Shown one piece after another: positions 39,328 to 60,586 of a stretch of 64,000 bases of DNA. The notes beneath the pieces are model-generated. The model had not been told where the DNA came from, did not search any database, and saw nothing but the letters and a program-made list of their open reading frames with translations. The position numbers were made by a program, and so were the translations under genes. Source of the DNA: a virus. Location: the IMG/VR virus record IMGVR_UViG_3300045988_162176, positions 32,001-96,000 of that record. One strand, written 5' to 3'. Each line of letters begins with the position of its first letter. Positions within the stretch are counted from its first letter, which is position 1.

Positions 39328-40276
39328 TATTTGTCTCCTCATTCAAATCTCTCAAGAACTGATACATTTCAGTAACAGTCTTATCGCCAACATCATAACG
39401 ATTATTTACATCACAAGAATTTCTTGCAAACTGCATTTCTACTGCGTCAATGTACATAGAAGCACTGGTCTGTTCACCGTCTTGGCCATCATCGCCCATG
39501 TACATAGTATTCCAGTCTTCCTCAGACATAAGACGCTGAGGTTCGAGCTGTTTAATAGCAAGGTTGTCAAAACTAATAACAGAGAACCACTTCTCGTCAA
39601 TCATATGACCAAGATTGTCATAGATTGCTTTCTGTTTATTCGCTACAAGCTTCTTAGCCCAATCTTCCTTAACATATTCCTCACCACGACGAACAGTCTT
39701 ATAACCAAGAATGAGAATCTTAAGGTTACGATTCTTAAGAGCACGAAGAGTATCCATTGTTACAATACCATTAATGACATGGAGAACAAGATTAGGATAC
39801 TTAGAAATAGTCTTAAGGAACTGTGGCTGAAGAGGGTCAACAAGAGAGACCCCAATGCCATAGATGAACTTCTCATTAACAAGCTGTTCAATAAGCTCTT
39901 GATTCTTCATGAATTCAAACTGATGAACAGTAATATTGGGAATGAGTTTGAGTTCCTTGCACTTGCGGAGAAATGGAATCAAATCAGGGTGAGAAGTTAC
40001 TGCGCCACCGCCAACTGCAATTTCAGTGTATTCGTGAAAACTTTTAAGGAGATTTTGGAACTTTTCTCCCATAATATCGCCGCTTTTACCCTCTAAAGTG
40101 GCATTTTCATGACAAAATTTACAACCAATAGGGCAAAATCTGGTAATGCAAATGTCGGCGCTTTCTGGAAAATCAGCCTTGAAAAAGCTCAAATCATTTT
40201 CACGAGTTTTGGTTCCGTTGTCCAGATTCAGCTCCACTGTATAATTTCCGTTCTGATAGGTAACAATATTATCCAT
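39311..40276 (-). CDS. radical SAM domain protein
   Basis: 321 aa; CPIGCKFC (CxxxCxxC) cluster motif followed by a GGG-containing segment (EIAVGGGAVTSHPD). Confidence 0.7.
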   Translation of the reverse strand: MDNIVTYQNGNYTVELNLDNGTKTRENDLSFFKADFPESADICITRFCPIGCKFCHENATLEGKSGDIMGEKFQNLLKSFHEYTEIAVGGGAVTSHPDLIPFLRKCKELKLIPNITVHQFEFMKNQELIEQLVNEKFIYGIGVSLVDPLQPQFLKTISKYPNLVLHVINGIVTMDTLRALKNRNLKILILGYKTVRRGEEYVKEDWAKKLVANKQKAIYDNLGHMIDEKWFSVISFDNLAIKQLEPQRLMSEEDWNTMYMGDDGQDGEQTSASMYIDAVEMQFARNSCDVNNRYDVGDKTVTEMYQFLRDLNEETNNETDS

Positions 40277-42045: not shown

Positions 42046-42489
42046 TTAGTTATAACCATAAGCACAAGTAATAACAAGCTTGTCACCACTTGGAGATGTA
42101 TAATGAGAAATTTCTGTATGAAGTCCATCACTACTACAATCCTGCATAAACTCTTGATAAGTTAAACCAGACCCTTCATAGTCGAAAAGAGAATTCTTTT
42201 CTTGTCTGCGTTGCTGTGCAATATGATTGTAAGTGTATTCTTCTCTTTCTGCGTCTGTAAGTTCAGACCAGTCTTTGTAATATTTGCCTTTACCGATGTT
42301 ATAAGCTTCTTCTGCTTCTTTTCTATCTTGCTTGGTAATTTTAATGGTATTCTTAACAAAAGTTTCATGCCATTTATTAAAAAGCAATTTACCATCTTTC
42401 CAGTCTTTGTACTCATCTTCAGTACAAATGGCAAGTGTATGAGTAGAAGAAGAATTTGTTTCAAATACATTTTTACGAATTTGCTTCAT
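42046..42489 (-). CDS. FETNSSS-motif family protein (copy 2, short)
   Basis: MKQIRKNVFETNSSSTHTL... Confidence 0.7.
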   Translation of the reverse strand: MKQIRKNVFETNSSSTHTLAICTEDEYKDWKDGKLLFNKWHETFVKNTIKITKQDRKEAEEAYNIGKGKYYKDWSELTDAEREEYTYNHIAQQRRQEKNSLFDYEGSGLTYQEFMQDCSSDGLHTEISHYTSPSGDKLVITCAYGYN

Positions 42490-44777: not shown

Positions 44778-45326
44778 TTAGTGATTGTCATTGTCGATAA
44801 ACAAACTATAACACTTATTAAAAATATAATCTTCTAATGTAATTCCATCTCTTGCAAAAATATAATACATTCCATCAGAAACATAATAATCAAGACTTTG
44901 ATGGTCTACATAACCATCTTCATCAGGACTAATTTCAATTCCTATAATGTGAATATCATGCTTAGAAAGAGCGTGCTTTACATCATCTTCAAATTTTTGG
45001 AAATCATCAGATTCCATAACTTCTTTAATAGCTTCTTCTTTATCTTCTCTACTGCTCCAATTAATATTATAACCTTGGAAACAAGTTATAGCAGTTAAGA
45101 TATATTCAAGTTTAGCTATTGCGCTATTTTCATCTAAATCAGAGTCCCAACCCCATCCAAAGGTTTCAAAATTTAATTTTAAATATTTACCGTAACCATT
45201 GTGACCATAATCCTCTTCAATGTAATCATCTAACTGAGTATAATCATAATTATCTTTACTACTAATACTCAATGAATGAACACTTGAAGAATTAGTCTCA
45301 AAAACATTTTTTCTAATTTGTTTCAT
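44778..45326 (-). CDS. FETNSSS-motif family protein (copy 4)
   Basis: MKQIRKNVFETNSSSVHSL...DGYVDHQS...IDNDNH. Confidence 0.7.
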   Translation of the reverse strand: MKQIRKNVFETNSSSVHSLSISSKDNYDYTQLDDYIEEDYGHNGYGKYLKLNFETFGWGWDSDLDENSAIAKLEYILTAITCFQGYNINWSSREDKEEAIKEVMESDDFQKFEDDVKHALSKHDIHIIGIEISPDEDGYVDHQSLDYYVSDGMYYIFARDGITLEDYIFNKCYSLFIDNDNH

Positions 45327-49678: not shown

Positions 49679-49749
49679 AGCGGCGACTTCGAATCGAACG
49701 AGCATTTCACGGGTTAGAGCCGTGCGCATTGACCATTATACTACGCCGC
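49679..49749 (-). tRNA. suppressor tRNA, anticodon CTA (reads UAG)
   Basis: GCGGCGT AG TATAATGGTCAATGCG C ACGGC(CACGG) CTCTAAC CCGTG...TCGCCGC; perfect 5-bp anticodon stem, loop CT-CTA-AC; the T stem pairs only 3 bp; no encoded CCA. Confidence 0.7.
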
Positions 49750-49778
49750 AATGTTAAATAAAGTCAAATGACCTTAAG

Positions 49779-49855
49779 TGGCACGCCTGACGAGATTCGA
49801 ACTCATAAGATACACTTTAGAAGAGTGCGGTTTTATCCAATTAGACTACAGGCGC
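49779..49855 (-). tRNA. tRNA-Arg(TCT)
   Basis: Canonical cloverleaf, 77 nt, loop CTTCTAA, TTCGAAT T-loop, encoded CCA. Confidence 0.9.
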
Positions 49856-49860
49856 TTAAT

Positions 49861-49937
49861 AAAGCTAGACTCATTTTTCAAAACATTTGTAATCCCAAAT
49901 CACAAGTCTCTAAATAATTGCTGTAAGAGTCTACTTT
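49861..49937 (-). ncRNA. E-element 1 (simple)
   Basis: AAAG TAGACTC TTACAGCAA ..45 nt.. GAGTCTA G CTTT; ends 9 nt before tRNA-Arg(TCT). Confidence 0.6.
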
Positions 49938-49954
49938 ATTTTTTTATTTATAAA

Positions 49955-50090
49955 TGGTGGGAATGGAGTGACTCGAACACTCAATTTCCCGATTTGGTGT
50001 TTTAGACAAGTCTTGCACTTGCATTTGAAGTTTTACTTTTAAACTACTAAAACATAAGTCGGGCCCTCTGACCAATTGAGATACATCCCC
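49955..50090 (-). tRNA. tRNA-Ile(TAT)-like interrupted by a 59-nt insertion in the anticodon loop
   Basis: GGGGATG..CCCGA CTTAT[59 nt]AA TCGGG AAATT GAGTG TTCGAGT CACTC CATTCCC A CCA; all four stems pair. Confidence 0.7.
49995..50053 (-). ncRNA. tRNA-shaped insertion (I-type element I1) inside the tRNA-Ile anticodon loop
   Basis: GTTTTAG TA GTTT AAAAGTA AAAC ... CAAGT GCAAG ACTTG . CTAAAAC ACCA: 7-bp acceptor-like helix, D-like and T-like hairpins, 3' ACCA. Confidence 0.6.
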
Positions 50091-50100
50091 ATATAAAATC

Positions 50101-50192
50101 CTAGACACCATATAAAAATCTAAAAAAGTATTTATTCCAATTAAATATATTTCCCAGTATTTTTATTTTAATTGCTGTAAGTGTCTACTTTT
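50101..50192 (-). ncRNA. E-element 2 (simple)
   Basis: AAAAG TAGACAC TTACAGCAA ... GTGTCTA G; ends 10 nt before the interrupted tRNA-Ile. Confidence 0.6.
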
Positions 50193-50204
50193 AACATTAC
50201 TAAT

Positions 50205-50274
50205 CTAAACCCTATCCATAATCTTTTTTTCAAGCAAAAATTAAGTAGTTAAATTGCTGTAAGGGTTTACTTTT
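50205..50274 (-). ncRNA. E-element 3 (simple)
   Basis: AAAAG TAAACCC TTACAGCAA ... GGGTTTA G; directly upstream of E2. Confidence 0.6.
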
Positions 50275-50326
50275 AAATCATCAATAACTTACCATCTTGT
50301 TTGTAGTACTCCAAACAATTCAATCT

Positions 50327-50392
50327 TGCACCGTGGGGGATTCGAACCCCTCTTAAGCCCTCCGTCGAGCGACCCCAACCTTGGTACGGCAC
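50327..50392 (-). ncRNA. tRNA-like element (acceptor stem + T arm, non-canonical body)
   Basis: GTGCCGT...AGGGG TTCGAAT CCCCC ACGGTGC A; only about 66 nt; no convincing D or anticodon arms. Confidence 0.4.
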
Positions 50393-50399
50393 TTATAAA

Positions 50400-50540
50400 C
50401 TAGACGCATAATACTAACAAAGGAGAATCATGAAAGCATCATAAACTAATTAGCAAGGAACAATACCCAAAATCTTTTTTTAAATATTAGAATTTTTTTA
50501 TAGAATTTGATTTTTATTATTGTTTGCTGTAAGCGTCTAC
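50400..50540 (-). ncRNA. E-element 4 (long AT-rich interior)
   Basis: G TAGACGC TTACAGCAA ..110 nt.. GCGTCTA G. Confidence 0.55.
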
Positions 50541-50565
50541 GTTAGATAATTTGAATTGTTGCTTA

Positions 50566-50646
50566 TGGCAGGGATGGAAGGATTCGAACCTTCGAAAAAA
50601 ACTCATAGAGTCAAAGTCTACTGCCTTACCGCTTGGCTACACCCCT
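50566..50646 (-). tRNA. tRNA-Gln(TTG)-like with a type-II-style D arm and an 11-nt unstructured variable region
   Basis: AGGGGTG TA GCC AAGCGGTAA GGC A GTAGA CTTTGAC TCTAT GAGTTTTTTTC GAAGG TTCGAAT CCTTC CATCCCT G CCA. Confidence 0.65.
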
Positions 50647-50653
50647 ATATATT

Positions 50654-50780
50654 TTCCTTAGCTGGTGGTTCCGATTCGCCCATCCAGAACTCCCTACTTG
50701 AGTGCCATTCTATACTCATTAGAGGCTTTCCGACTGAAGGGTATTTTAATTTATTTATCGTCTTTTAAACTACTAAGGAA
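50654..50780 (-). ncRNA. free-standing I-type tRNA-like spacer RNA (I3)
   Basis: 8-bp closing helix TTCCTTAG/CTAAGGAA, then TA GTTT AAAAG..., the same start as the two anticodon-loop insertions; 3' hairpin CTGGATGG..CCACCAG. Confidence 0.5.
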
Positions 50781-50781
50781 T

Positions 50782-50856
50782 TGGAGCAGAAGACGGGAAT
50801 CGAACCCGCACCTACGACCTCGGAAGCCGTTATTCTCACCATTAAACCACTTCTGC
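50782..50856 (-). tRNA. tRNA-Arg(CCG)
   Basis: Canonical 75-nt cloverleaf, loop TTCCGAG, encoded CCA; first gene after promoter 50887-50915. Confidence 0.9.
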
Positions 50857-50886
50857 AAGGTTGGTTTATCTCTCAACCACATCTTA

Positions 50887-50915
50887 AGTATAACATATAC
50901 TTTTCATCTTGTCAA
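50887..50915 (-). promoter_or_regulatory. promoter of tRNA/E-element operon (Arg-CCG to Sup-CTA)
   Basis: TTGACA-17-TATACT. Confidence 0.65.
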
Positions 50916-51106
50916 GTACTTTTTAAAATTTCTTTTTGGAAGATTTTTTCGTTCAAATTAAGGAGGACAAAAACTTTTTGATACCAAAACAACTCAAGAC
51001 CAAGAAGTTCACAAAGAGCATCAACATCTTTCATTGTATACTTGTCTTTCTTTAAAGCTTTAATTTTTTCAACAATTTCCTCTTCTAAGAATAAAAATTC
51101 GTCCAT
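50912..51106 (-). CDS. hypothetical small protein inside the tRNA island
   Basis: 64-aa ORF; RBS AAGAGGA. Confidence 0.55.
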   Translation of the reverse strand: MDEFLFLEEEIVEKIKALKKDKYTMKDVDALCELLGLELFWYQKVFVLLNLNEKIFQKEILKST

Positions 51107-51143
51107 AATAAAAATCCTCTTTTATTTGGGGAAAAATTCTAAA

Positions 51144-51216
51144 ATGAAGTGGTTGGAATCGAACCAACGACCAGCGAAGATACCCCAACGCCGCTCTACC
51201 CCTGAGCTACACTTCA
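51144..51216 (-). tRNA. atypical tRNA or tRNA pseudogene (defective anticodon arm)
   Basis: Good acceptor, D (GCTC AGGGGTA GAGC) and T (GTTGG TTCGATT CCAAC) arms, but the anticodon arm has only GCG/CGC pairing around TTGGGGTATCTT. Confidence 0.45.
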
Positions 51217-51217
51217 A

Positions 51218-51292
51218 TGGAGCTGGATGAGAATTTTGAAATCTCGACTTCCACTTTACAAGAGTGGCGCTCTGCCTCTGAGCTAATCCAGC
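51218..51292 (-). tRNA. tRNA-Thr(TGT)
   Basis: 75-nt cloverleaf, loop CTTGTAA, encoded CCA. Confidence 0.85.
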
Positions 51293-51317
51293 AAATAAAG
51301 GACTAAACAAATAGTCC

Positions 51318-51833
51318 TTATCCACGAGTACGTTTCCAATAATTTGCCATTTTATATTCAGGCTTATTAGTAACTTCCTCGATAAACACTTCAGGAAAAG
51401 GCCAAACATAACTATTAGCTTCTTCCTCAGAATCAAATTCAACTTCGGCATAATAGAAGGCATTATCAGTTCCGCCATCTACAAGATTGAATTCAATTAA
51501 ATAACCATTATTGTAAAGACCTCTATAATCTTTTACAATAGGATTATAACCAAGTTCATTAAAACAGTCAAACAAAGAATTATCTGTAAGATTTGTTTCA
51601 ATTTCAGTACGAGTTAAAGTACCACCAGACTTGAAAGTAAGAGCATCTGGACGATAACCTTTGCCACTTTCAAACCAACGTCTTATACGAATTTCCTGTG
51701 AAATTTTTCCATCAGAATTATATTTGATATTAATATAAATAGTTTTAACAATTCCGACTTCATCAAAATCGACTTTAGGAAAACCAGAGATTAAAAACTT
51801 ACGTTCGATTTCGATTGAATTATTATTACTCAT
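51318..51833 (-). CDS. CYTH-domain (triphosphate tunnel metalloenzyme) protein
   Basis: 171 aa; N-terminal EIERKFL (ExExK signature), later acidic/basic beta-strand pattern (EIRIRR, YAEVEF). Confidence 0.75.
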   Translation of the reverse strand: MSNNNSIEIERKFLISGFPKVDFDEVGIVKTIYINIKYNSDGKISQEIRIRRWFESGKGYRPDALTFKSGGTLTRTEIETNLTDNSLFDCFNELGYNPIVKDYRGLYNNGYLIEFNLVDGGTDNAFYYAEVEFDSEEEANSYVWPFPEVFIEEVTNKPEYKMANYWKRTRG

Positions 51834-51852
51834 TTTTAATCTCCTTTTTCCA

Positions 51853-51947
51853 TGGCACTAGCGGTAAGATTCGAACTCACGAGACGGATACAAGCCGTCA
51901 CACATCATTTCAAGTGATGGCAGTTATGACCACTTCTGTACGCTAGC
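51853..51947 (-). tRNA. tRNA-Ser(TGA)
   Basis: 95 nt, long variable arm, loop CTTGAAA, encoded CCA. Confidence 0.85.
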
Positions 51948-51954
51948 ATTTATT

Positions 51955-52260
51955 TTATGTTTCAGAGAACAGATAGATACCTTTTTCTCCTACATCCTTT
52001 TTAATATCAGTAAATTCTTTATCACTAATTTGAGTCATTGGAGGGAATACACTTTTGAAAGAAGAACAACCATCTTTTTCAATAGTAACCATTTGTTTCT
52101 TACAAACTGGGCAAGTATAATTCCAAGATAAAAAATTAGTTTCATCCTTAGCAATTTTCATCTCTACTACTTGCATTATTCCCTTATTACAATGAGGACA
52201 TCTATAAACAAACTTTTTATTACTTGCTGTCTAATAAATGTAAGTCTTAAAATTAGTCAT
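51955..52260 (-). CDS. double zinc-ribbon small protein, TAG-recoded
   Basis: MTNFKTYIY*TASNKKFVYRCPHCNKGIMQVVEM...CPVCKK; 102 codons. Confidence 0.6.
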
Positions 52261-52284
52261 TAGAATTTACTTCCTTTTATTTTT

Positions 52285-52372
52285 TGGTTGCTGAAGCATG
52301 GGAGTCGAACCCACTATCGTACAGGGTATGAACCTGACATGATTTATAATTATCCGTTTCACTCGCCAGCAA
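52285..52372 (-). tRNA. atypical tRNA, probable anticodon CAT (Met/Ile2), with extra nucleotides between the D and anticodon arms
   Basis: Starts directly after the CCA of tRNA-Cys; TCAGG TTCATAC CCTGT arm, GTGGG TTCGACT CCCAT T arm, acceptor TTGCTG/CAGCAA, CCA. Confidence 0.5.
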
Positions 52373-52448
52373 TGGTGGACCTGACAAGACTTGAACTTGC
52401 GACTTCCTGCGTGCAAAGCAGACACTCTCCCAACTGAGTTACAGGCCC
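52373..52448 (-). tRNA. tRNA-Cys(GCA)
   Basis: Canonical 76-nt cloverleaf, loop TTTGCAC. Confidence 0.9.
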
Positions 52449-52989
52449 ATAATTAAACTATACTCCCAAATAGCAACAGAGTTTTTTACAAGAACTCTAT
52501 AACTTGGCTTTTGTTGTTCATCCTCAGCACCACCTGTTAGGAGCAATAAGCAGTATGCTCGGCTTATTGTGTTTTAAGGTTACATGACCCATAACCTCAA
52601 TACCTACCCCGATTTAGTTGCAGTAATCAGAGTTTTTGTTTGAACAAGTACGCAACCACTTGTCCCCGTAAACACGGCACAGACTTCTCCGTATAGCTTT
52701 TCGCTGTAGGTTTTTGATGTTACATTCGCACCCTAACATCTCTCGCCATATATCTGTGTTCTGCCCATGTGCGGCTCATAGCCTTTTTCAGCTTGTGACA
52801 GCTTACTTTGCGTTCGAGAACCATTCACTTGTTCTCTACTCCAAGACTTCGGACGGGCGTTGGGGCTTTAGCTTAACGGACTAAAGGTGAGTTCAAATAT
52901 ATGAAACACCGACGAGGCTTTAGCCATCCTTGCTGAATCGGGCAGTTTAATATAAGTTATATTCTCTGTCTGCCAATTGATATATAACT
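52449..52989 (-). ncRNA. large (about 0.54 kb) structured RNA between tRNA-Leu(CAA) and tRNA-Cys (L2)
   Basis: No ORF on the minus strand; markedly G+C-richer; many local and long-range complementary segments. Confidence 0.55.
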
Positions 52990-53074
52990 TGGTGGCTAAG
53001 GTGGGACTTGAACCCACATCTCTTTCGAGGGTTGTACTTGAAGCAACTGCGTATGCCAATTTCGCCACTCAGCC
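52990..53074 (-). tRNA. tRNA-Leu(CAA)
   Basis: 85 nt, long variable arm, loop TTCAAGT, TTCAAGT T-loop, CCA. Confidence 0.85.
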
Positions 53075-53087
53075 ATAATAATTAATA

Positions 53088-53209
53088 CTAGACACGTTTT
53101 TTTTGATATCGGTCATCCAGACATCCCCCGAAGGAGACGGAAGAATCGAACTTCCCCGTTTAATTTTCCATATTAAAGAATCAAGTAATTTTGCTGTGCG
53201 TGTCTACTT
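53088..53209 (-). ncRNA. E-element 5 with a closed-acceptor tRNA-like domain
   Basis: AAG TAGACACG CACAGCAA ... GGAAG TTCGATT CTTCC GTCTCC TTCG GGGGAT ... CGTGTCTA G; ends 12 nt before tRNA-Leu(CAA). Confidence 0.6.
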
Positions 53210-53260
53210 GAAAGGAATTTATATTTGCCTATTAGAAAAATAGGAGCGTCAATCTATTAA

Positions 53261-53392
53261 CTAGACTCATTTTACAAAATCTGTTGCTCTACCAGTTGAG
53301 CTAACTCCCGATGGTCGGGAGCAGAGGATTCGAACCTCCAACACACAGGCCCATAGCATTTGTGATTGTAAAGTTGCTGTTAGAGTCTACTT
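53261..53392 (-). ncRNA. E-element 6 enclosing the permuted tRNA-Gln
   Basis: AAG TAGACTC TAACAGCAA C TTTACAA ... [permuted tRNA] ... TTGTAAA AT GAGTCTA G. Confidence 0.6.
53273..53349 (-). tRNA. circularly permuted tRNA-Gln(TTG)-like module (3' half, CCA, T, 5' half) inside E-element 6
   Basis: CCTGT GTGTT GGAGG TTCGAAT CCTCT GCTCCCG A CCA T CGGGAGT TA GCTC AACTGGTA GAGC A ACAGA TTTTGTA; the acceptor halves are mutually complementary. Confidence 0.6.
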
Positions 53393-53466
53393 GAAAGGAA
53401 TGCTTTTATGAACAATAAAAAATGAACATTAGCTTACAAATAAATTTGTATCTTTACCATGTTTTT

Positions 53467-53495
53467 ACTATAACATAAAATTTTCATTTTGTCAA
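53467..53495 (-). promoter_or_regulatory. promoter of the E6-E5-tRNA-Leu-L2-tRNA-Cys unit
   Basis: TTGACA-17-TATAGT. Confidence 0.65.
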
Positions 53496-53518
53496 GAATT
53501 TTAAAACAAAAATTTTAC

Positions 53519-53603
53519 TGGTGGGTGAGGAAGGTGCCGACCCTTCTACTCCGTTAGGAAAGAGTTTTACAGACTCCCGTGTTTGCCGATTCACTACTCA
53601 CCT
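53519..53603 (-). tRNA. tRNA-Tyr(GTA)
   Basis: 85 nt, long variable arm, loop CTGTAAA; unusual T-loop GTCGGCA. Confidence 0.75.
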
Positions 53604-53633
53604 ATTTAATTATTTTCCTTTTTTAGAAAGGGG

Positions 53634-53698
53634 CTAGACGCTTTTTGTGTATTCTTATTTAACAGATAAGTACATTTAAATTGCTGTAAGCGTCTACT
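53634..53698 (-). ncRNA. E-element 7 (simple, with an anticodon-arm-like hairpin)
   Basis: AG TAGACGC TTACAGCAA ... CTTAT CTGTTAA ATAAG ... GCGTCTA G. Confidence 0.55.
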
Positions 53699-53732
53699 AT
53701 TGAAGTCATTACAAAATTAGCATTTCTGCTAT

Positions 53733-53808
53733 TGGTGCTCATGGAGGGACTCGAACCCTCGACAGACGGCTTAAAAGGCCGCTACTCTACCAACTGAGTT
53801 ACATGGGC
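53733..53808 (-). tRNA. tRNA-Lys(TTT)
   Basis: 76 nt, loop CTTTTAA, one C-A mismatch in the acceptor stem. Confidence 0.85.
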
Positions 53809-53815
53809 ATAAATA

Positions 53816-53951
53816 CTAGAGACATTGTTGTTATGGACTCCTGCCTTAAACCACTTGGCTACATACTTCAACTGAAGACGTTCGGATTCGAACCGAAGAA
53901 TGGGAGTTTGGCTTCTAACATACTTTCAGAATTGCTGTTAGTCTCTACTTT
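53816..53951 (-). ncRNA. E-element 8 with a closed-acceptor tRNA-like domain
   Basis: AAAG TAGAGAC TAACAGCAA ... ACTCC CATTC TTCGG TTCGAAT CCGAA CGTCTTC AGTT GAAG.. GCC AAGTGGTTTAA GGC A GGAGT ... GTCTCTA G. Confidence 0.6.
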
Positions 53952-54119
53952 ATAAATATCTTATTGAAAGGAAATTATTCATATCAGATAGAGAGAAAGG
54001 AGAAATAATATCTCGTCAAATAATTAATTCTTAACCCTTCGATAGATTTAAGTTCCCCTCATTTAAATCCGATAAAACTTACTCACACTATCATAAGAAC
54101 GGATTTCTGATTTGAATAA

Positions 54120-54195
54120 TGGTACTCGGTACGGGGTTCGAACCCGTGCTACTGACGTGAAAGGCCAGTGTCTTAGCCCACTTGACTAACCGAGC
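54120..54195 (-). tRNA. tRNA-Glu(TTC)
   Basis: 76 nt, loop CTTTCAC. Confidence 0.85.
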
Positions 54196-54203
54196 ATATT
54201 AAC

Positions 54204-54324
54204 CTAGACTCTTTTGCGTATTATTCACCACAGAGCGCCCTCTGACGAGAATCGAACTCGCTAATGATTGTTTTGCAGACAATTGTGTTAACCTTTTTAA
54301 GAATTTGCTGTAAGAGTCTACTTT
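54204..54324 (-). ncRNA. E-element 9 with a closed-acceptor tRNA-like domain
   Basis: AAAG TAGACTC TTACAGCAA ... GCGAG TTCGATT CTCGT CAGAG GGCG CTCTG TGG... GAGTCTA G; ends 8 nt before tRNA-Glu. Confidence 0.6.
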
Positions 54325-54353
54325 ATTATTCAGGAGGTTTTACCTATGCACTT

Positions 54354-54382
54354 ATTATAACATATCATCTTTAAGATGTCAA
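54354..54382 (-). promoter_or_regulatory. promoter of the E9-tRNA-Glu-E8-tRNA-Lys-E7-tRNA-Tyr unit
   Basis: TTGACA-17-TATAAT. Confidence 0.65.
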
Positions 54383-54494
54383 CCACTTATTAAAATTTTC
54401 TTTTTGCTTTTTATCTTTTTGAGAAGTTTTTATTTTGCTCTTTTCTTAAGATGTATTTATCTTACCACACTTTTAGATTTCTGTCAAGACTTTA

Positions 54495-54887
54495 TTAGAA
54501 ATTTTCTTTTTCGAAATGATTAGCAAAAGCTATATAATTTTGACTTTTAATAAGCTCCTCAAAAACCTCTACAGGAGGCTCAACAAAGTTTCTAATAAGG
54601 TCTACTAATTCTATCATAGAATTAGCTTCGAGGGTAAAGATTAAACCATCATATGGAATACATCTATAAACCCATTTGCCTGACGTACTTTGATAACAAT
54701 CGGCATTAGTCCAAACTTGAGTAGCATCTAAAATACGAGATTCCCAAGGATATTTAATAATTTCAGAACCTCTTTTATACCAATAATTAAATTCTTTATC
54801 TTTTAAAATATCATTGGTTTCAAGCTCGCACTCGTCGCCATTACAAATAGAATAATGACCGACAATTTTAAATGAAGAAGTATCCAT
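54495..54887 (-). CDS. hypothetical protein
   Basis: 130-aa ORF. Confidence 0.7.
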   Translation of the reverse strand: MDTSSFKIVGHYSICNGDECELETNDILKDKEFNYWYKRGSEIIKYPWESRILDATQVWTNADCYQSTSGKWVYRCIPYDGLIFTLEANSMIELVDLIRNFVEPPVEVFEELIKSQNYIAFANHFEKENF

Positions 54888-55159
54888 TACTCAGTAACCT
54901 CAGCGTAAGTTAATTCCATAATATCAGGCTTAACGGGATAAAATTCACCCTTAATTCCCTTAACAATGTAATCTCCTACAGAAGCACAGTGATAACCTTC
55001 AAGAGTATAAATAATAAGATTCTTTTTAATTCCCTTCATTGTATGTTCAGTAGTAACACAACAATGAGCGCCAACGAAACTTGTAATTTCTTCTTCGTTA
55101 TCGCCAGTCCAGATAATTGCTTGAATAGCAATAGGTTTCTTAATATATGTCTTAATCAT
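54887..55159 (-). CDS. hypothetical small protein
   Basis: 90-aa ORF. Confidence 0.7.
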   Translation of the reverse strand: MIKTYIKKPIAIQAIIWTGDNEEEITSFVGAHCCVTTEHTMKGIKKNLIIYTLEGYHCASVGDYIVKGIKGEFYPVKPDIMELTYAEVTE

Positions 55160-55175
55160 ATCTCTTCACCTTGAC

Positions 55176-55472
55176 TCATCTATATTTATACTTAAGTTGA
55201 CAAGACTTCAACCAAATCCAAAACAAAAGAGAAGCGTCAATTCCATCTACTTCATTCATAATGCGATAATTATCAGAATCTTTTTCAGGATAGCCATAAA
55301 CTACTTGTGCATCATAGCACTAAACAAGATACTTACAATTTGTCTTAGATATAATAGCAAGCTCACTTATATAATTAAATTTATCAACTTTCTTTTCGTA
55401 ATAAGTCCCGAATTTATCTGAAGAGATAAGTTTATATCCATGTTTAGCAAACTGTTTGTCAATATAATCCAT
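55176..55472 (-). CDS. hypothetical small protein, TAG-recoded
   Basis: MDYIDKQFAKHGYKLISSDKFGTYYEKKVDKFNYISELAIISKTNCKYLV*CYDAQVVYGYPEK...; TAG at 55320-55322; 99 codons. Confidence 0.55.
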
Positions 55473-55835
55473 AAAAATACCCTTTTATTTTATTAAATAT
55501 ATAAGGAACAAAAACTGATAACTACTGACAGACCAGCTTTTCACTTATCTGTCCTCGGTTTGGCTGAGGAGGGGCTATTCCTTATAAGGGGCTTACACTC
55601 AACTATCTTGGTCATTTTCATTATCAGTTTTGCTCATTGCATAAGGGTTTAACGTACCCAGTTAAGCAAAGCAACGGTCTTTCTATTGTTACCAGTCCAT
55701 CAGACTTGGAGGGCGGTTCAGTGTCGAATACATTGTAACCAGCTAAACTGTATTCCAAGATAAGTTTCGTACTATATCTTACGGATTTCTTGTTTTTTTA
55801 AAAAGACATCAAGAAATATCTAACCATTCTGTCTT
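55473..55835 (-). ncRNA. structured non-coding region L4
   Basis: About 360 nt without an ORF between E13 and the CDS start at 55472; hairpins (GACAGA..TCTGTC, TCCTC..GAGGA, repeated AGCCCCT). Confidence 0.35.
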
Positions 55836-55936
55836 TTGGAGCGGCATCGAAGAATCGAACTCCAAACATAATAAAAGTATTGTCCATGGCTACTTTTATT
55901 ATTACACCAGTTGCCGCATATTTGCTGTCTCTCCAA
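55836..55936 (-). ncRNA. E-like element 13 enclosing a normal-order tRNA-like RNA with a 12-bp arm
   Basis: TTGGAG AG ACAGCAA ATAT GCGGCAA CTGGTG TAATAATAAAAGTA GCCATGGACAA TACTTTTATTATG TT TGGAG TTCGATT CTTCG ATGCCGC TCCAA. Confidence 0.4.
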
Positions 55937-56010
55937 GCTGTCACCGCTAATATGGTTGTAGGTTCTGGACGGTCTGAACTTAGGTGCGCCATACACACAT
56001 CCTAACATTA

Positions 56011-56123
56011 AGCGATACTCCATCTGTTAGGCGAACTTCCATCTTTATAAGACGGTATCGTAGTTACTGGACCTCATAATTGGATTCGAACCAACTTCCT
56101 CTCCCGATGTGGCTGTTATCGCT
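56011..56123 (-). ncRNA. E-element 12 (divergent) with a tRNA-like domain
   Basis: AGCGATA ACAGCC ... GTTGG TTCGAAT CCAAT TTATGAG ..21 nt.. CTTATAA ... TATCGCT. Confidence 0.45.
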
Positions 56124-56509
56124 AAGGAGCTACCTTAGTGTTTATTCAACATCAGTTATCGAGAATGCACCATTACACTAATGGGGATATAAATGTTATA
56201 GACCTTTTAACTATAACTCACAGGCTTTCCCTTATTCAAACAAGGTGGCGGGACGTGTGCTGTGTTTTTAAAAGAAAGTCCTTGTTATACTTTTTCTTTC
56301 AAGGATTTAGTGGTAAGAACTTTTCTTGACCATAGGCGTTCTCAAACCTACTCCTTTACCTATATGCTCAACATAAATTAGGTTAAGCATCTCAACCTTG
56401 AGGTCAACTGGGGTATCTTACAGCCGTTCGGTTTATTTTTAGTTTGAGTAAACCTTCCTCAAACACTCCTTCATCCACTTTTTTACAAGGATACGGAATC
56501 CACGAGTTT
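56124..56509 (-). ncRNA. structured non-coding region L3
   Basis: About 385 nt without an ORF between tRNA-Ser(GCT) and E12; dense hairpins (GTTTGAG..CTCAAAC, ATGCTTAAC..GTTGAGCAT, GTTATAG..CTATAAC). Confidence 0.4.
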
Positions 56510-56597
56510 TGGCGCAGATAACAGGATTCGAACCTGTATTACCTTACGGTAAGCGGCTGTAGCAGAGCCGTGAGATAGCCAATTACTCCATATCTGC
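56510..56597 (-). tRNA. tRNA-Ser(GCT)
   Basis: 88 nt, long variable arm CTTACCGTAAGG, loop CTGCTAC. Confidence 0.85.
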
Positions 56598-56609
56598 ATA
56601 ATGAGCAAT

Positions 56610-56737
56610 CTTGACACTTTTTTCTAGCCAACCACGGTTAACCATTCCTTGCTCAAGGGATACGTTAATAAGGAGTCGAACCTTACACGACGTTATTCCA
56701 AAAACATAAAATAAATTTGCTGTGAGTGTCAACTTTT
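56610..56737 (-). ncRNA. E-element 10 with a tRNA-like domain
   Basis: AAAAG TTGACAC TCACAGCAA ... TAAGG TTCGACT CCTTA TTAAC..CCTT GAGC AAGG..GTTAA ... GTGTCAA G; ends 12 nt before tRNA-Ser(GCT). Confidence 0.55.
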
Positions 56738-56755
56738 GTTTAAATTTAAGTCTGA

Positions 56756-56833
56756 TGGTGGGAATAACAGGACTCGAACCTGTAAGCCTCCGCCGTGTAA
56801 AGGCGGCATTCTAACCAGTTGAACTATACTCCC
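56756..56833 (-). tRNA. tRNA-Val(TAC)
   Basis: 78 nt, loop TTTACAC. Confidence 0.85.
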
Positions 56834-56972
56834 ATATAATATTGGTTTTTACGTTAAATACCAGAGGACTTTCGTATTTTACCAACAAACCTCACGTTAC
56901 TTGACTTATTTATAGACGTTGAGTAATTACGTCTCAACAATACATTTATTAAGATAAGAAAGGAAAATTATC

Positions 56973-57419
56973 TTAGCCTACTGCTTCTTCAGTTACAGTA
57001 TCTTCATCAGGGATAACATTACCAGTGTTATCAATCTTGTCATTCGAAGGAACAGGATTGGTGTTTTGAAGCTGGCTCTCCTTCAATTTTTCATCATGAA
57101 GTTCACGATTCACCTCATAAACAGCGGCTTCAATAGCCTTACGAACTTCATCTGCATCAAGAGTGATACCAAGAGCTTCCATCTGCTGATTAAAATACTT
57201 TGTTGCTTCCTGCAAGCGCTTTTCAATTTCCCGTGGGAACATCTGCTCAACAGCCTTAACTGCAATCAAAGCATACTTATGAATAAGTTCTGCTTGAGTA
57301 AGAGCATGATTAACATCGTCCAACTTACCCTTCTTCTTAAGATAAGGAATAAGGACAACTGTAAAAATCAAAGAGCACAAACCAATTACAGCAACTACGA
57401 TAGGGGTAATATCAGTCAT
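56973..57419 (-). CDS. membrane-anchored protein
   Basis: 148 aa; N-terminal TM helix; downstream of promoter 57447-57475. Confidence 0.75.
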   Translation of the reverse strand: MTDITPIVVAVIGLCSLIFTVVLIPYLKKKGKLDDVNHALTQAELIHKYALIAVKAVEQMFPREIEKRLQEATKYFNQQMEALGITLDADEVRKAIEAAVYEVNRELHDEKLKESQLQNTNPVPSNDKIDNTGNVIPDEDTVTEEAVG

Positions 57420-57446
57420 TTTTCGTACTTCCTTTTTACATTTTGA

Positions 57447-57475
57447 ATTATAGCATCTAACAAACGCTTTGTCAA
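57447..57475 (-). promoter_or_regulatory. sigma-70-type promoter
   Basis: TTGACA-17-TATAAT. Confidence 0.65.
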
Positions 57476-57497
57476 GTGTTTATTAAATAAAATTTGA

Positions 57498-57631
57498 TGG
57501 AGCAAGATACGAGATTCGAACTCGCCCTTACGGTTTTGGTCCTTTAAGTAAGACTTGAACTTACATCAATGGTTTTTCATTAAACTATTAAAGGGGAAGA
57601 CCGTCGTGCTAACCACTAACACTAATCCTGC
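57498..57631 (-). tRNA. tRNA-Gly(TCC)-like interrupted by a 58-nt insertion in the anticodon loop
   Basis: GCAGGAT TA GTGT TAGTGGTTA GCAC G ACGGT CTTCC[58 nt]AA ACCGT AAGG GCGAG TTCGAAT CTCGT ATCTTGC T CCA. Confidence 0.7.
57537..57594 (-). ncRNA. tRNA-shaped insertion (I-type element I2) inside the tRNA-Gly anticodon loop
   Basis: CCTTTAA TA GTTT AATGA AAAC CATTGAT GTAAG TTCAAGT CTTAC TTAAAGG ACCA; homologous to I1 with a covarying 7-bp helix. Confidence 0.6.
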
Positions 57632-57781
57632 ATATATGATGCCACTCACGCATGAATGGCATCAAACCCCACGCTCCGTAGAGACCTCATGCTAGCCTGA
57701 TAGGTTTCCTACTAAGATACCAGTAAAGTAATGAGCTTAACCAGACAAACGTAGACTTAACCAGTGGAGTATCTAGCTTAA
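57632..57781 (-). ncRNA. structured leader upstream of the interrupted tRNA-Gly
   Basis: 150 nt without an ORF; hairpin GATGCCA..TGGCATC; repeated CTGGTTAAG. Confidence 0.3.
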
Positions 57782-58252
57782 TTAATATTCAAGAACATCC
57801 CATTCACAATAATAAATATTATGACTCATAAGATAAGAATTAAGAATGTCTTCTTCAGATTGATTTCTAAGTTTCTCAATTTTTTGTTCTAAGTCCTTGA
57901 TATAAAAACTTTTTCTTTCAATCTCTTTTGTATATTTGCGCAACTTTGCCTTTACATCTTTAAGTAAAACATAAAGACGCTTTTGCTGGTCATCAGAAAG
58001 AGTTGCTAACGAATCCAAAGATTCCATTAAATCATTCTTTCTCTGACAATATTCTTTATGCTGTTCAATATAAGGTTGTCGTTCTTTTTTAGCAATTTCT
58101 ACCTTGTCTGTAAGATATTTAATATCTTCACAAAGTTTAACACTTGCTTCAAGAAAATAACTCTGCTTATCTTTAAGCATAGCTTCTTCAGTCATCACTG
58201 CATCGACAGAAGATTCTTCATACCAACCTGTATACTTAAGCCAAACTTTCAT
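57782..58252 (-). CDS. hypothetical coiled-coil protein
   Basis: 156-aa ORF. Confidence 0.7.
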   Translation of the reverse strand: MKVWLKYTGWYEESSVDAVMTEEAMLKDKQSYFLEASVKLCEDIKYLTDKVEIAKKERQPYIEQHKEYCQRKNDLMESLDSLATLSDDQQKRLYVLLKDVKAKLRKYTKEIERKSFYIKDLEQKIEKLRNQSEEDILNSYLMSHNIYYCEWDVLEY

Positions 58253-58254
58253 AA

Positions 58255-58728
58255 TTACTTTTTCACCGAAGTCACGCCATTAAAATCATACAAACGTACA
58301 ATATGGCTTAGTCCTAAAGTGTCAGAAATATCAGCACTAATGATAGACCAATCTCCACCAGCAAGACCACACCCAATCATATAAGGCATAGCAATCTCTT
58401 CTCCAATAGGAATCATTTCACGAATCTTAAGAAGACATTCATGAAAATATTCATAGTTGGTGTTTACATTTGGTCCACCAATGCCAATCTGAGAAAACAT
58501 ATTAAGAAAAACTTTATCTTTGTTTTCCTCAATTCGAAGAACTTTACCATAAAGCTCTTCAGGAGTATGATAACTACAAAACTTATTATACTCCAAATAA
58601 ACATGAGGATAATTCTTCTTAATTTGAAGAGCAACACCAGCGCCCATTACACCAAAGGTATTAGCCTGATGACAAATATACTTTGCCGAAGTCTTAAGGA
58701 CATCGCCTTGAATAATAGACACTGACAT
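58255..58728 (-). CDS. macro-domain protein (ADP-ribose binding/hydrolase fold)
   Basis: 157 aa; IIQGDVL...YICHQANTFGVMGAGVALQIKKNYP...IGCGLAGGDW. Confidence 0.75.
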   Translation of the reverse strand: MSVSIIQGDVLKTSAKYICHQANTFGVMGAGVALQIKKNYPHVYLEYNKFCSYHTPEELYGKVLRIEENKDKVFLNMFSQIGIGGPNVNTNYEYFHECLLKIREMIPIGEEIAMPYMIGCGLAGGDWSIISADISDTLGLSHIVRLYDFNGVTSVKK

Positions 58729-58739
58729 AACCTTCTCCT

Positions 58740-59027
58740 TTATTCTTTATCTGTTTCTTGCAAATTTTCTTGCAACTTCTTATAATACATATGATAAGAA
58801 TCAAAGTATTTAAGAAGAAATTCTTTATAAACTTTAGCGACATAATTAGCAGAACCCACAGGAAAATCAAGACCCAAATCTTCTGCAATAATATCTACAG
58901 CTTTTCTCAAAGGCTCAGGAGGGATATTATTCAGTTTAAACTTTTTAGTTTCTGAATCATTATCACACCAAGCTTTGCCATTTACAACCGTTAAAAACCT
59001 AATTGAAGGATTCTTAGAGAGTTCCAA
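58740..59027 (-). CDS. hypothetical protein (TTG start)
   Basis: The longer ORF to 59060 overlaps a promoter-like site at about 59051-59079; TTG preceded by GAGGAA. Confidence 0.5.
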   Translation of the reverse strand: MELSKNPSIRFLTVVNGKAWCDNDSETKKFKLNNIPPEPLRKAVDIIAEDLGLDFPVGSANYVAKVYKEFLLKYFDSYHMYYKKLQENLQETDKE

Positions 59028-59109
59028 CTTGTGTTCCTCACTTCTCTTATAGGGTAACACAGATGTTTAAATCTGTCAAGTATTTAATAAAAGAAATTTT
59101 TTATTTCTC

Positions 59110-59346
59110 CTACTTTTTATTATCATCAAATTTGCCAGAATGGATAGCTTTTCTACTGACAAACTTTGCCGCAGAAAATATAAATACAAACAAGGGAAAG
59201 AAAAATACACCTAAAGATTCAAATGACTCAGAAAAATCCCAATAGTCTTCATCTTCTTCTGCAATGCACTTCATTACACGAGCAAAGAAAATCCACAGAA
59301 TATGATTAAGAATTATAAGAATTGTAATAATCAACCACTTAGGCAT
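59110..59346 (-). CDS. small membrane protein
   Basis: 78 aa, two hydrophobic helices. Confidence 0.65.
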   Translation of the reverse strand: MPKWLIITILIILNHILWIFFARVMKCIAEEDEDYWDFSESFESLGVFFFPLFVFIFSAAKFVSRKAIHSGKFDDNKK

Positions 59347-59359
59347 ATTAATTCCTTTC

Positions 59360-59435
59360 TGGCACGCCTACCGAGACTCGAACTCAGAACTAATCTTTAG
59401 GAGAGATTTGTTTTATCCAGTTAGACTATAGACGT
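59360..59435 (-). tRNA. tRNA-Arg(CCT)
   Basis: 76 nt, loop CTCCTAA. Confidence 0.85.
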
Positions 59436-59440
59436 ATACC

Positions 59441-59875
59441 TTATTTTTTCTTTTTGGGTACAGCTTCAGCTACAAAAAGAACAGGATTCTCATTTTCATC
59501 ATATGTAACTATGGCTTCCATTTCAGCCTTTACATTAAAAGAAGCTGTTTTTAAATATCTACCACAAAAACTTCCATGAAGATTAGAAAGATTCTCATAG
59601 TTATAATCCAAATTGTTTTGAACACTAATCCCCATTGTTGCTAATGTGATAAATACATCATATTTTTCTTTAGGTTTTTCTATAAAACCAGTATACCCAT
59701 CACATTTATACCTAACATAAATAGGCAAATTATCTTTCATATTTAAGTCAACAAAACTTAAATCATAAAATTTTGTGTGGCAATATGGACATTCATAATT
59801 AGAATTAGCTGAATACTTTTGATGACAACAAGGACAAGTAACCTAATTACGATATCTAAAACTCTTCTTAGACAT
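59441..59875 (-). CDS. zinc-ribbon protein, TAG-recoded
   Basis: MSKKSFRYRN*VTCPCCHQKYSANSNYECPYCHTKFYDLSFVDLNMKDNLPIYV...; 145 codons in frame with ORF 59441..59740. Confidence 0.6.
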
Positions 59876-59883
59876 AATTTACC

Positions 59884-60246
59884 TCATACTGTAAAACAAG
59901 ACACGGGAATTTTTGTAGAATTCTTTTCTTCCATAACATAAAAAGAAACATTTGAAAGCTTAATATTATTCCACTCTTCTTTAGTTTTAGAAGAATACTT
60001 GGGCCAAAAAAGCCCTTCAAATGTTACAAAATTGTTTTCAGGGTCAACATAAAGAGTCCTTACAAACCCAACAACCCTATCTGCAACAGTTTTCTCTTCA
60101 TAAACTACTTCTTCACAAATAGGAGTCCTAAAGCAATCTTTAAGACCTTCCCACATTGCATCTGTAAGCCAATCCCCCAACTCATCTCTCTTTAGAGTAA
60201 ACTCTTGAGTTAGAAACTTTTCATCAGGAGAGTAATTTTCAGCCAT
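59884..60246 (-). CDS. hypothetical protein
   Basis: 120-aa ORF. Confidence 0.7.
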   Translation of the reverse strand: MAENYSPDEKFLTQEFTLKRDELGDWLTDAMWEGLKDCFRTPICEEVVYEEKTVADRVVGFVRTLYVDPENNFVTFEGLFWPKYSSKTKEEWNNIKLSNVSFYVMEEKNSTKIPVSCFTV

Positions 60247-60550
60247 TGTTCATTTCCTCAAAAGGAGTAGTATCCTTAGTGGGAGTACCAATAACACTGA
60301 GAACAGGAGTAAGATTGCCTTCAACATCAGAACAATAATAAAGCCAACCATTCATATCAGAAACGATATGATAAACACGATTCTGCTCATTCTTCACCAT
60401 GTAGCCAGTATCAGTAAAACCAACAGGAACACTATCCACATCAGCCCCGATACTATTCTTGCTATTGTTACAACCAGACAGTGCCAAAATTGCAACAAAA
60501 GCCACAATAACAAGAAGACCAGCAACAAACTTATTCCAACTCTTCTGCAT
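60239..60550 (-). CDS. putative lipoprotein
   Basis: 103 aa; signal peptide ending in the lipobox LALSGC. Confidence 0.7.
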   Translation of the reverse strand: MQKSWNKFVAGLLVIVAFVAILALSGCNNSKNSIGADVDSVPVGFTDTGYMVKNEQNRVYHIVSDMNGWLYYCSDVEGNLTPVLSVIGTPTKDTTPFEEMNNG

Positions 60551-60586
60551 AATTAATTCCTCACTTTTAAATAGATTTTTATTCTT

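Follow-up and report, generated by a model that had tools for sequence, protein, structure and literature searches.

tRNA-shaped inserts in the anticodon loops of phage tRNA genes as candidate introns removed by tRNA processing

The bulge-helix-bulge (BHB) introns of archaeal and eukaryal tRNAs are cut by a splicing endonuclease, and their exons are joined by RtcB or Trl1; yeast tRNA-Ile(UAU) also has an intron, of 60 nucleotides (nt). To our knowledge, bacteria lack the splicing endonuclease, group I introns are the only intron type established in bacterial tRNAs (cyanobacterial tRNA-Leu, Azoarcus tRNA-Ile), and enzyme-driven tRNA splicing is thought to be confined to archaea and eukaryotes. 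Group I introns measure at least ~200 nt, have a conserved P3-P9 core, begin at a 5' splice site with a U.G pair and end in G. Here we analysed a viral DNA of 64,000 nt (positions 32,001 to 96,000 of the IMG/VR record IMGVR_UViG_3300045988_162176; this whole stretch is hereafter the window), in which a 59-nt insert, itself shaped like a tRNA, splits the anticodon loop of a tRNA-Ile(UAU) gene.

The closest described case is that of the Lak megaphages, in which 'enigmatic' introns of ~90-115 nt were found in the anticodon loops of Tyr, Phe, Thr and Gly tRNAs; of the one in tRNA-Thr, the authors noted that it 'may encode a tRNA' (Devoto et al. 2019 Nat Microbiol, PMC6784885). These introns are present in some and absent from other related phages and are identical in sequence where present (PMC6784885). 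On re-reading Table S6 of that report (PMC6784885), we found an acceptor/T-arm tRNA-like module at the 3' end of four out of four introns, preceded by a 5' segment of 26-30 nt that comprises a small hairpin with an A-rich loop and a AAAUUAAA-like linker; they lack a CCA, and the 3' junction falls 0-2 nt after the discriminator. The inserts of the window have the anticodon-loop location and the acceptor/T-arm module in common with the Lak introns, but they consist of the tRNA-like unit alone, from +1 to CCA, without the 5' hairpin and linker, and the two kinds are related but distinct architectures. Our literature searches yielded no precedent besides the Lak report and no mechanistic follow-up. 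The first-pass annotation, which was made from the sequence alone, had called this splicing route undescribed in phages; phage tRNA introns as such are not wholly undescribed, given the Lak report, which proposed neither a mechanism nor a boundary rule (PMC6784885).

In comparison with BHB introns, the insert is similarly short, lies in the anticodon loop and would similarly be removed by enzymes before ligation, whereas it lacks the BHB motif, occupies sites 34/35, 35/36 or 36/37 in different genes instead of the fixed 37/38, and is predicted to leave 3'-OH and 5'-P ends instead of 2',3'-cyclic-P and 5'-OH ends. The predicted fold places the 5' junction directly at the inner helix and leaves an unpaired ACCA ahead of the 3' junction. 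With group I introns, the insert has the anticodon-loop location in common but none of their characteristic features: its 59 nt, its terminal A and the lack of a match to RF00028 at E<=10 agree with the initial judgement that it is too small for this class.

Nested tRNA genes in the window and in related phages

The outer gene (50090..49955, minus strand) has the layout GGGGAUG-UA-UCUC-AAUUGGUCA-GAGG-G-CCCGA-[66 nt]-UCGGG-AAAUU-GAGUG-UUCGAGU-CACUC-CAUUCCC-A-CCA, in which 66 nt separate the anticodon-stem strands CCCGA and TCGGG. Indeed, 50090..49958 matched the Rfam tRNA model from end to end (51.8 bits, E=1.3e-10 locally), and the alignment placed a 62-nt insertion in the anticodon loop. Taking out 59 nt (50053..49995) leaves the 7-nt loop CUUAUAA of a 77-nt tRNA-Ile(UAU), with the predicted junction GACUUAU/AAUCGGG (here and below, a slash within a sequence marks a junction). 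ARAGORN called the joined exons tRNA-Ile(tat), a canonical cloverleaf with U33, a purine at 37 and a discriminator followed by CCA. Under default settings, the same program did not call the nested gene, and when introns were allowed, it detected the gene with the intron in a wrong register ('SeC tca'). Rfam, ARAGORN and the sister lineages described below thus agree with the pairing of the outer arms, the UAU anticodon and the 36/37 register as first described. The minimum free energy (MFE) fold of the entire 136 nt consists of the outer cloverleaf and an inner three-way junction; the folding energy by itself is only mildly unusual (z=-2.1 for the 136-nt precursor, z=-1.4 for the insert), and the support for the nested structure is evidently comparative rather than energetic.

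The insert, GTTTTAG-TA-GTTT-AAAAGTA-AAAC-TTCAAAT-GCAAG-TGCAAGA-CTTGT-CTAAAAC-A-CCA, is composed of a 7-bp acceptor stem (GUUUUAG/CUAAAAC), a D arm, a 7-nt linker that replaces the anticodon arm, a T arm (GCAAG-UGCAAGA-CUUGU), the discriminator A and CCA. Searched by itself against the Rfam tRNA model, it scored 35.9 bits (gathering score 29; E=7.6e-7), and in the alignment the acceptor, D and T arms matched while the anticodon arm alone was deleted (18 model positions reduced to 3 nt). It has the acceptor stem, the D arm, the T arm with a U54..C56..A58 loop and the NCCA end of a tRNA, and it lacks a decoding anticodon arm with a 7-nt loop. The Rfam result and the MFE fold both recover the acceptor-like helix, D-like hairpin, second hairpin, discriminator and CCA that had been read from the letters. 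Neither the locus nor the insert by itself matched any Rfam family besides tRNA at E<=10 (no ribozyme, group I RF00028, YrlA or tmRNA).

A second case lies in the same window. In a tRNA-Gly(UCC) gene (57631..57498), the stem ACGGU/ACCGU encloses CUUCC, a 58-nt insert and AA, and the predicted joined junction is GGUCUUCC/AAACCGU. The Gly insert is composed of the acceptor stem CCUUUAA/UUAAAGG, a D arm, the T arm GUAAG-UUCAAGU-CUUAC and A-CCA, and an odd 55-nt 'tRNA' that Rfam reports at 57540-57594 is the inner unit of this nested gene. Furthermore, pattern scans of IMG/VR and re-analysis of the contigs (numbered L001 and so on) revealed nested genes in related phages for Ile, Gly(UCC), Gln(UUG), Lys(UUU), Glu(UUC) and Thr(UGU). 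The nested Ile gene of the window type was present in at least 10 contigs (108-216 kb, from several samples), and four further, strongly diverged nested tRNA-Ile(UAU) lineages have inner units of 57-75 nt (L001/L029; L005; L014; L161/L173/L187/L197). Since the same gene recurs in at least 10 contigs of several samples and the homologous family covaries, neither chance nor an assembly artefact explains it. The nested-tRNA observation is thus real, was correctly described and is broader than one locus.

The inner units differ in what stands at the position of the anticodon arm. That of L014 is a whole tRNA(CUA), of the amber suppressor type, which sits in the anticodon loop of a tRNA-Ile(UAU), and this tRNA nested in a tRNA may represent an ancestral state of the mini-introns. 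It alone has a real CUA arm; in most other inner units the arm is lost or swapped for an arbitrary hairpin, and the orthologues of the Gly insert in L026 and L162 carry an extra GAAA-capped hairpin at this position. The decoding part of the inner unit is dispensable. In addition, free-standing homologues of the mini-tRNAs, also without the anticodon arm, occur in the tRNA arrays of other phages (65-77 bits with the covariance model R1 described below); these are not nested and have no encoded CCA.

We then compared the inner and outer structures across the family. The covariance model R1 was built from nine inner units and gave 27 strong matches of at least 50 bits. Among 23 distinct inner sequences, 98.6% of the cells in 16 base pairs were standard pairs, and 11 pairs changed on both sides, including all 7 acceptor pairs; covariation was found in all three inner helices. 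In contrast to these values, 0 of 500 shuffles reached the observed level, and slid controls paired at 35-55%. Orthologues of the window insert differ only in the linker, a U.G wobble, a G.U-to-A-U change and the discriminator. As for the outer helices, all 21 pairs were kept across the five nested Ile lineages, with compensatory changes in 14 of them. Judged by this comparison, the inner and the outer structures are evidently both under selection. The first-pass annotation had reckoned with unrelated, non-covarying insertions in related phages as evidence against it; the insertions instead form a homologous family with strong covariation.

Compared with 50,697 GenBank phages by megablast, the 3 kb surrounding the locus had no match. 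In 185,579 bacterial and archaeal genomes, the nested-Ile pattern occurred 10 times, each time by chance inside coding sequence. As far as tested, nested Ile genes are a phage feature.

Boundaries of the inserted unit

Removal of the inner unit from its nucleotide 1 to CCA76 gave a 7-nt loop with U33 and a purine at 37 in every nested case (five Ile lineages, Gly, Gln, Lys, Glu and Thr), and ARAGORN called 14 of 14 joined-exon products, which represent six anticodon types, canonical tRNAs with the predicted anticodons. The insertion site is 34/35 in Thr (layout UUU/.../GUAA), 35/36 in Gln (CUUU/.../GAC) and Lys (CUUU/.../UAA), and 36/37 in Ile, Gly and Glu. Since the site differs between genes, the boundaries track the ends of the inner tRNA and not a fixed position of the loop. 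The test was run per gene; it replaced a statistic on leftover lengths over all CCA sites, which was confounded by stem slippage.

Intronless relatives provided independent loops for comparison. Such relatives were found for the Gly(UCC) gene of the window (L213, L214 and L215; loop CUUCCAA; 97-99% over 76 nt), the Glu gene of L026 (L213 and L162; CTTTCAC; 97%), the Gln gene of L012 (L213, L024, L162 and L031; CTTTGAC; 97-99%) and the Ile genes of L005 (L236; 94%) and L029 (L235; 86%), both with the loop CUUAUAA. They align ungapped over the exon junction, and the observed Gly loop CTTCCAA is obtained from one register only. Since these relatives match the joined exons, the register is fixed for Gly, Glu, Gln and two Ile lineages. 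No intronless copy of the window's own tRNA-Ile lineage was found in viral contigs or in metagenome contigs (0 matches; two metagenome searches), and its register rests on homology with the sister lineages. U73 is the bacterial glycine discriminator, and the discriminators of the nested genes fit the identities (U73 in Gly; A1-U72 with G73 in Gln; A73 in Ile and Lys). With the two window genes read as Ile(UAU) and Gly(UCC), every anticodon that ARAGORN or Rfam calls in the tRNA array of the window is unique (with a tRNA-like gene at 56068-56186 left aside). By comparison, the unit gained or lost is exactly inner nucleotide 1 to CCA76, and the earlier proposal, in which putative excision takes place at the tRNA ends of the inner unit itself, is strongly supported by this comparison.

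Two side issues were set aside. A broad scan with CCCGACTNNNAATCGGG was not discriminating, as this anticodon arm is common to Tyr, Met/Ile2, Lys and Asn tRNAs among the matches listed. An origin of the insert by retro-insertion of a mature RNA, suggested by its encoded CCA, was dropped, as 15 of the 17 ordinary tRNAs of the array also encode CCA.

Putative removal by tRNA processing and its alternatives

We consider the chances evenly balanced that the insert is an intron shaped like a tRNA without its anticodon arm, which lies between U36 and A37 and is removed by RNase P and a CCA-end endonuclease before the exons are ligated. The precursor would fold as two stacked tRNA-like bodies, and host RNase P would read the inner acceptor/T-arm helix, the elbow and the 3' NCCA and cut directly 5' of inner nucleotide +1, leaving a 5' exon that ends in U36-3'OH exactly at the junction. 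A CCA-end endonuclease (of the RNase E/G type, or a CCA-tolerant RNase Z) would cut directly after the inner CCA and leave a 5'-P on A37. The outer acceptor and anticodon stems would hold both tRNA halves together until an ATP-dependent 3'-OH/5'-P RNA ligase seals the nick to yield the mature tRNA-Ile(UAU). The identity of all three enzymes, and the ligation itself, are what we infer; the route had been announced as protein-only, which is wrong, bacterial RNase P being an RNA enzyme.

What RNase P and tRNA 3'-end enzymes recognise in a tRNA is also what the inner units have kept: a constant 7+5-bp acceptor/T helix, a T loop of U-N-C-R-A, a D arm and NCCA. The sequence features of an RNase P substrate are present and conserved in the insert, namely a coaxial acceptor and T helix of ~12 bp, an elbow of T loop and D loop, and a 3' RCCA. 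The inner tRNA(CUA) of L014, being complete, would need normal tRNA 5' and 3' processing for its release. Embedded tRNA shapes are known to recruit RNase P (and RNase Z) in MALAT1/mascRNA and in the dimeric T4 tRNA precursors. In these systems, too, a single cut creates the upstream RNA's 3' end together with the 5' end of the tRNA-like unit; the difference is that separate RNAs result there, while here the flanks belong to one tRNA and would need rejoining. Such a sealing step resembles the anticodon-loop repair of phage T4, in which the PrrC nick is healed by Pnk and sealed by Rnl1. In both, an ATP-dependent RNA ligase would seal an anticodon-loop nick whose ends are held by the tRNA body, but the T4 reaction is damage repair that needs end healing and not gene expression, and such genes were not found in the parts of the phage examined. 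For the 3' cut, E. coli RNase E cleaves directly after the CCA of proK/L/M (GACCA/AAUUCG and similar sites) to make mature ends (PMC5291269), and in T. maritima, RNase Z cleaves immediately 3' of a CCA that is encoded (PMC7479834). The corresponding junctions of the window are ACCA/AAUCGGG (Ile) and ACCA/AAACCGU (Gly).

Several points weigh against this pathway. A cut exactly after CCA is the exception in bacteria and not the default, and exonucleolytic 3' trimming would destroy the 3' exon. The nested Gly insert of L169 ends in UCA and not CCA, as the sole exception to NCCA among the nested copies. The 5' junction of the Lak introns cannot be an RNase P site, so that a pure model in which RNase P sets the 5' splice site cannot be general; this is the chief argument for caution in extending the model. 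The presence or absence of the insert is polymorphic among sister phages, which fits a selfish insertion equally, and AUA makes up 8% of the Ile codons in the open reading frames (ORFs) of the window. Finally, the suggested search for RNA ligase, RtcB and PNK genes, which we extended to RNase Z, came out negative with Pfam, PHROGs and motifs in the window, in its 10-kb flanks (together 84 kb of the 214,176-bp contig ena:ERZ27296301:k119_55060) and in 342 kb of loci of the clade. Pfam was run on 30 ORFs singly and 33 concatenated, leaving out 39 window ORFs shorter than 210 aa below 35.4 kb, PHROGs on 10 ORFs, and precomputed Pfam calls were used for the flanks; the motif scans over the 342 kb covered nucleotidyltransferase (NTase) KxDG/EGxV/KxK, RtcB GSRGxG, PNK and HxHxDH. 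The Pfam negative for the concatenated ORFs is weak, because concatenation lowered the sensitivity (a macro domain was missed that way). Taken together, splicing by tRNA processing has strong comparative support, and its enzymatic steps are putative.

Two alternatives accept the boundaries and differ in what happens to the RNA. The insertion could be selfish or product-oriented, so that the mini-tRNA is released as a product (decoy, primer or ligand) and the outer halves are never rejoined, the outer tRNA being inactivated or a mere carrier. The differences between sister phages in the presence of the insert, the negative ligase search and the free-standing homologues, by which the module may have a function of its own, would all fit, as would two further products of the phage, a tRNA mimic that resembles a Y RNA and a DUF2828/VWA protein that putatively binds RNA. 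However, a dead carrier would not be expected to keep perfect outer cloverleaves with so many compensatory changes, nor a 7-nt loop after every removal, and the window-type Ile gene, nested in 10 of 10 contigs with structure-neutral differences and without an intronless copy found, suggests a gene that is maintained; we regard this explanation as unlikely. Alternatively, a true intron could be removed by other machinery, namely a dedicated endonuclease-ligase pair of phage or host acting on the tRNA-like module, or an RNA-catalysed transesterification after one cut. This would suit the Lak introns, whose 5' splice site lies 26-30 nt upstream of a module without CCA and is not set by RNase P, and there is room for such enzymes, as many large window ORFs have no Pfam or PHROG match and RNA-end enzymes (Thg1-like, DSP-type phosphatase, macro domain, WGR-PARP) cluster beside the tRNA array. 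No candidate enzyme was found, however, and both junctions coincide to the nucleotide with inner +1 and A76 at any loop position, for which tRNA end processing is the simplest explanation, so that other machinery seems to us doubtful. As a further possibility, the first-pass annotation had suggested that the insertion may keep the tRNA inactive or resistant to nucleases until it is processed.

Two further readings dispute the gene or the class of the insert. ARAGORN called the window genes 'SeC tca' and those of L001, L014 and L026 'Trp cca', by which the outer gene would be an opal suppressor tRNA(UCA) or a tRNA-Trp(CCA) with an intron at 33/34 or 34/35 and 'CCA' as its anticodon. These registers result from a misreading of the inner CCA as an anticodon; they disagree with the discriminators, would put two identical anticodons in one array and are ruled out for Gly, Glu, Gln and two Ile lineages by the intronless loops CTTCCAA, CTTTCAC, CTTTGAC and CTTATAA, so that we give a different register hardly any credence. 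That the locus is a known intron class (group I or BHB), a decayed pseudogene or an assembly chimera is likewise highly improbable. Bacterial tRNA introns are normally group I, and the relatives carry inserts of 198-236 nt that are possibly group I, but the 59-nt insert has no Rfam match besides tRNA and ends in A and not G, no motif of 3-nt bulge, 4-bp helix and 3-nt bulge is present at the junctions, the insertion positions vary, and the same sequence recurs in at least 10 independent contigs with structure-neutral substitutions only. The inserts of 198-236 nt lie in the anticodon loops of other tRNAs of the relatives, including a suppressor tRNA(CUA), and they end in G and follow U, like group I introns; since Rfam gave no match for these ~219-nt inserts at E<=1, the group I label is a guess.

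If the joined tRNA is made from such precursors by the tRNA-processing pathway, this would be enzyme-driven tRNA splicing in bacteria or phages without a self-splicing intron or a splicing endonuclease. As a kind, phage introns that contain tRNA-like modules are barely characterised. The mechanism, should it be proven, would be new in category, and it would explain the 'enigmatic' phage tRNA introns of 2019. With the element found in six anticodon types at three loop positions, phages may have a third kind of tRNA intron, a degenerate tRNA whose sole role would be to let RNase P and a CCA-end endonuclease take hold, so that ordinary end processing of tRNAs and an RNA ligase would together make up a splicing pathway in bacteria. 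Such an element would spread between tRNA genes and possibly arose from whole nested tRNAs like the suppressor tRNA(CUA) in L014; we put this reading just short of an even chance. It would also explain why tRNA finders miss or mislabel nested genes (the two here were missed, or called SeC or Trp), and such mislabelled tRNAs affect inferences on codon usage and stop-codon recoding in large phages. In nature, the element would correspond to the engineered 'tRNA scaffold' and would offer a minimal module, portable as well, for RNase P-dependent excision, and its exact tRNA-end boundaries raise the testable question of how such elements insert into anticodon loops.

The tRNA array and other features of the window

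All genes of the window are on the minus strand, with a GC content of ~0.3, and the tRNA array lies entirely inside the window (Table 1). The cluster of RNA-end enzymes beside the array includes a Thg1-like protein, a DSP-type phosphatase and a weak macro domain, and a WGR-PARP protein is encoded just outside the window.

Table 1. Positions of the nested genes and of other features in the window and, where a contig number is given, in related phages
Feature	Position	Strand	Parts and evidence
5' exon, tRNA-Ile(UAU)	50054..50090	-	acceptor 5' strand, D arm, CCCGA, loop C32 U33 U34 A35 U36; Rfam alignment, ARAGORN cloverleaf
tRNA-shaped insert, 59 nt, Ile	49995..50053	-	Rfam tRNA model alone; model R1 64.4 bits; covariation; fold
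3' exon, tRNA-Ile(UAU)	49955..49994	-	A37 A38, UCGGG, variable loop, T arm, acceptor 3' strand, A73, encoded CCA
5' exon, tRNA-Gly(UCC)	57595..57631	-	ends in loop nt CUUCC; ARAGORN with introns; intronless orthologues
tRNA-shaped insert, 58 nt, Gly	57537..57594	-	Rfam tRNA 41.6 bits at 57540-57594; model R1 75 bits
3' exon, tRNA-Gly(UCC)	57498..57536	-	A37 A38, stem ACCGU, T arm, acceptor strand, U73, CCA
Nested tRNA-Ile(UAU) with inner tRNA(CUA)	L014 2791-2942; inner unit 2828-2902		inner unit, Rfam 54.6 bits
Nested Gly insert ending in UCA	L169 5756-5824		
Free-standing mini-tRNAs	L180 6066-6131; L211 683-748, 6926-6996; L183 3882-3947; L172 3992-4056; L212 3930-3997		model R1
198-236-nt inserts	L008 2925-3229; L019 3341-3645; L026 1251-1543; L031 4344-4637; L169 6526-6848; L208 4756-5079		
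tRNA array	49679-61688		
Suppressor-type tRNA(CUA)	49679-49749	-	
20-nt motif AAGTAGACNCTTACAGCAAT, 10 sites	49917-56735	-	includes 50171-50190 and 49917-49936
YrlA-like RNA (RF02553)	53268-53366	-	39.8 bits, E=1.5e-7 locally; below gathering score 69
ARAGORN 'tRNA-Thr i(38,85)'	53130-53309		
tRNA-like gene with 46-nt insertion	56068-56186	-	
Orthologues of this tRNA-like gene	L176 183-301; L181 6453-6571; L208 5287-5405		
Thg1-like 3'-5' polymerase / tRNA 5'-end repair enzyme, 274 aa			PDB 4KGK E=2.6e-57
RNA-end enzyme cluster	63276-63971, 62291-62818, 58255-58728	-	
RNA-end enzyme cluster, L216	6235-7482, 8719-9543		
DUF2828/DUF7788/VWA protein, 588 aa	36030-37796	-	phrog_850 'RNA-binding protein'; no PDB sequence match
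RAGATH-18 RNA	29047-29119	-	59.9 bits
TnpB/IS605 OrfB gene	29166-30317	-	
Three paralogous ORFs	38743-39342, 42046-42489, 44778-45326	-	common N-terminus

Several RNAs and motifs accompany the array. The suppressor-type tRNA(CUA), which has no encoded CCA, adjoins the nested Ile gene; TAG terminates 2 of 69 long window ORFs, which hints at TAG recoding elsewhere in the genome. The motif AAGTAGACNCTTACAGCAAT has 10 sites against 0.03 expected, all on the gene strand within the array, and two of its copies lie ~60-80 nt upstream of tRNA genes, one of which is the nested Ile gene; it looks like a phage promoter or a processing signal. The YrlA-like match, resembling a Y RNA, overlaps and explains the odd tRNA-Thr reported by ARAGORN, and the DUF2828/VWA protein could be a Ro-like partner of this RNA.

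The tRNA-like gene at 56068-56186 has some acceptor-stem mismatches and carries a conserved 46-nt insertion of a different kind, in which a 4-bp stem TGTT/AACA surrounds a CTAAGG/CCTTAG hairpin and is followed by GCCA/CAT, without a T-arm-like loop. Outside the array, the three paralogous ORFs have the N-terminus MKQIRKNVFETNSSS-x-H(S/T)L in common and gave no Pfam match (two scanned singly, one in a concatenated query). The RAGATH-18 RNA lies directly downstream of the TnpB gene, and the pair looks like a transposon-associated guide-RNA module carried by the phage.

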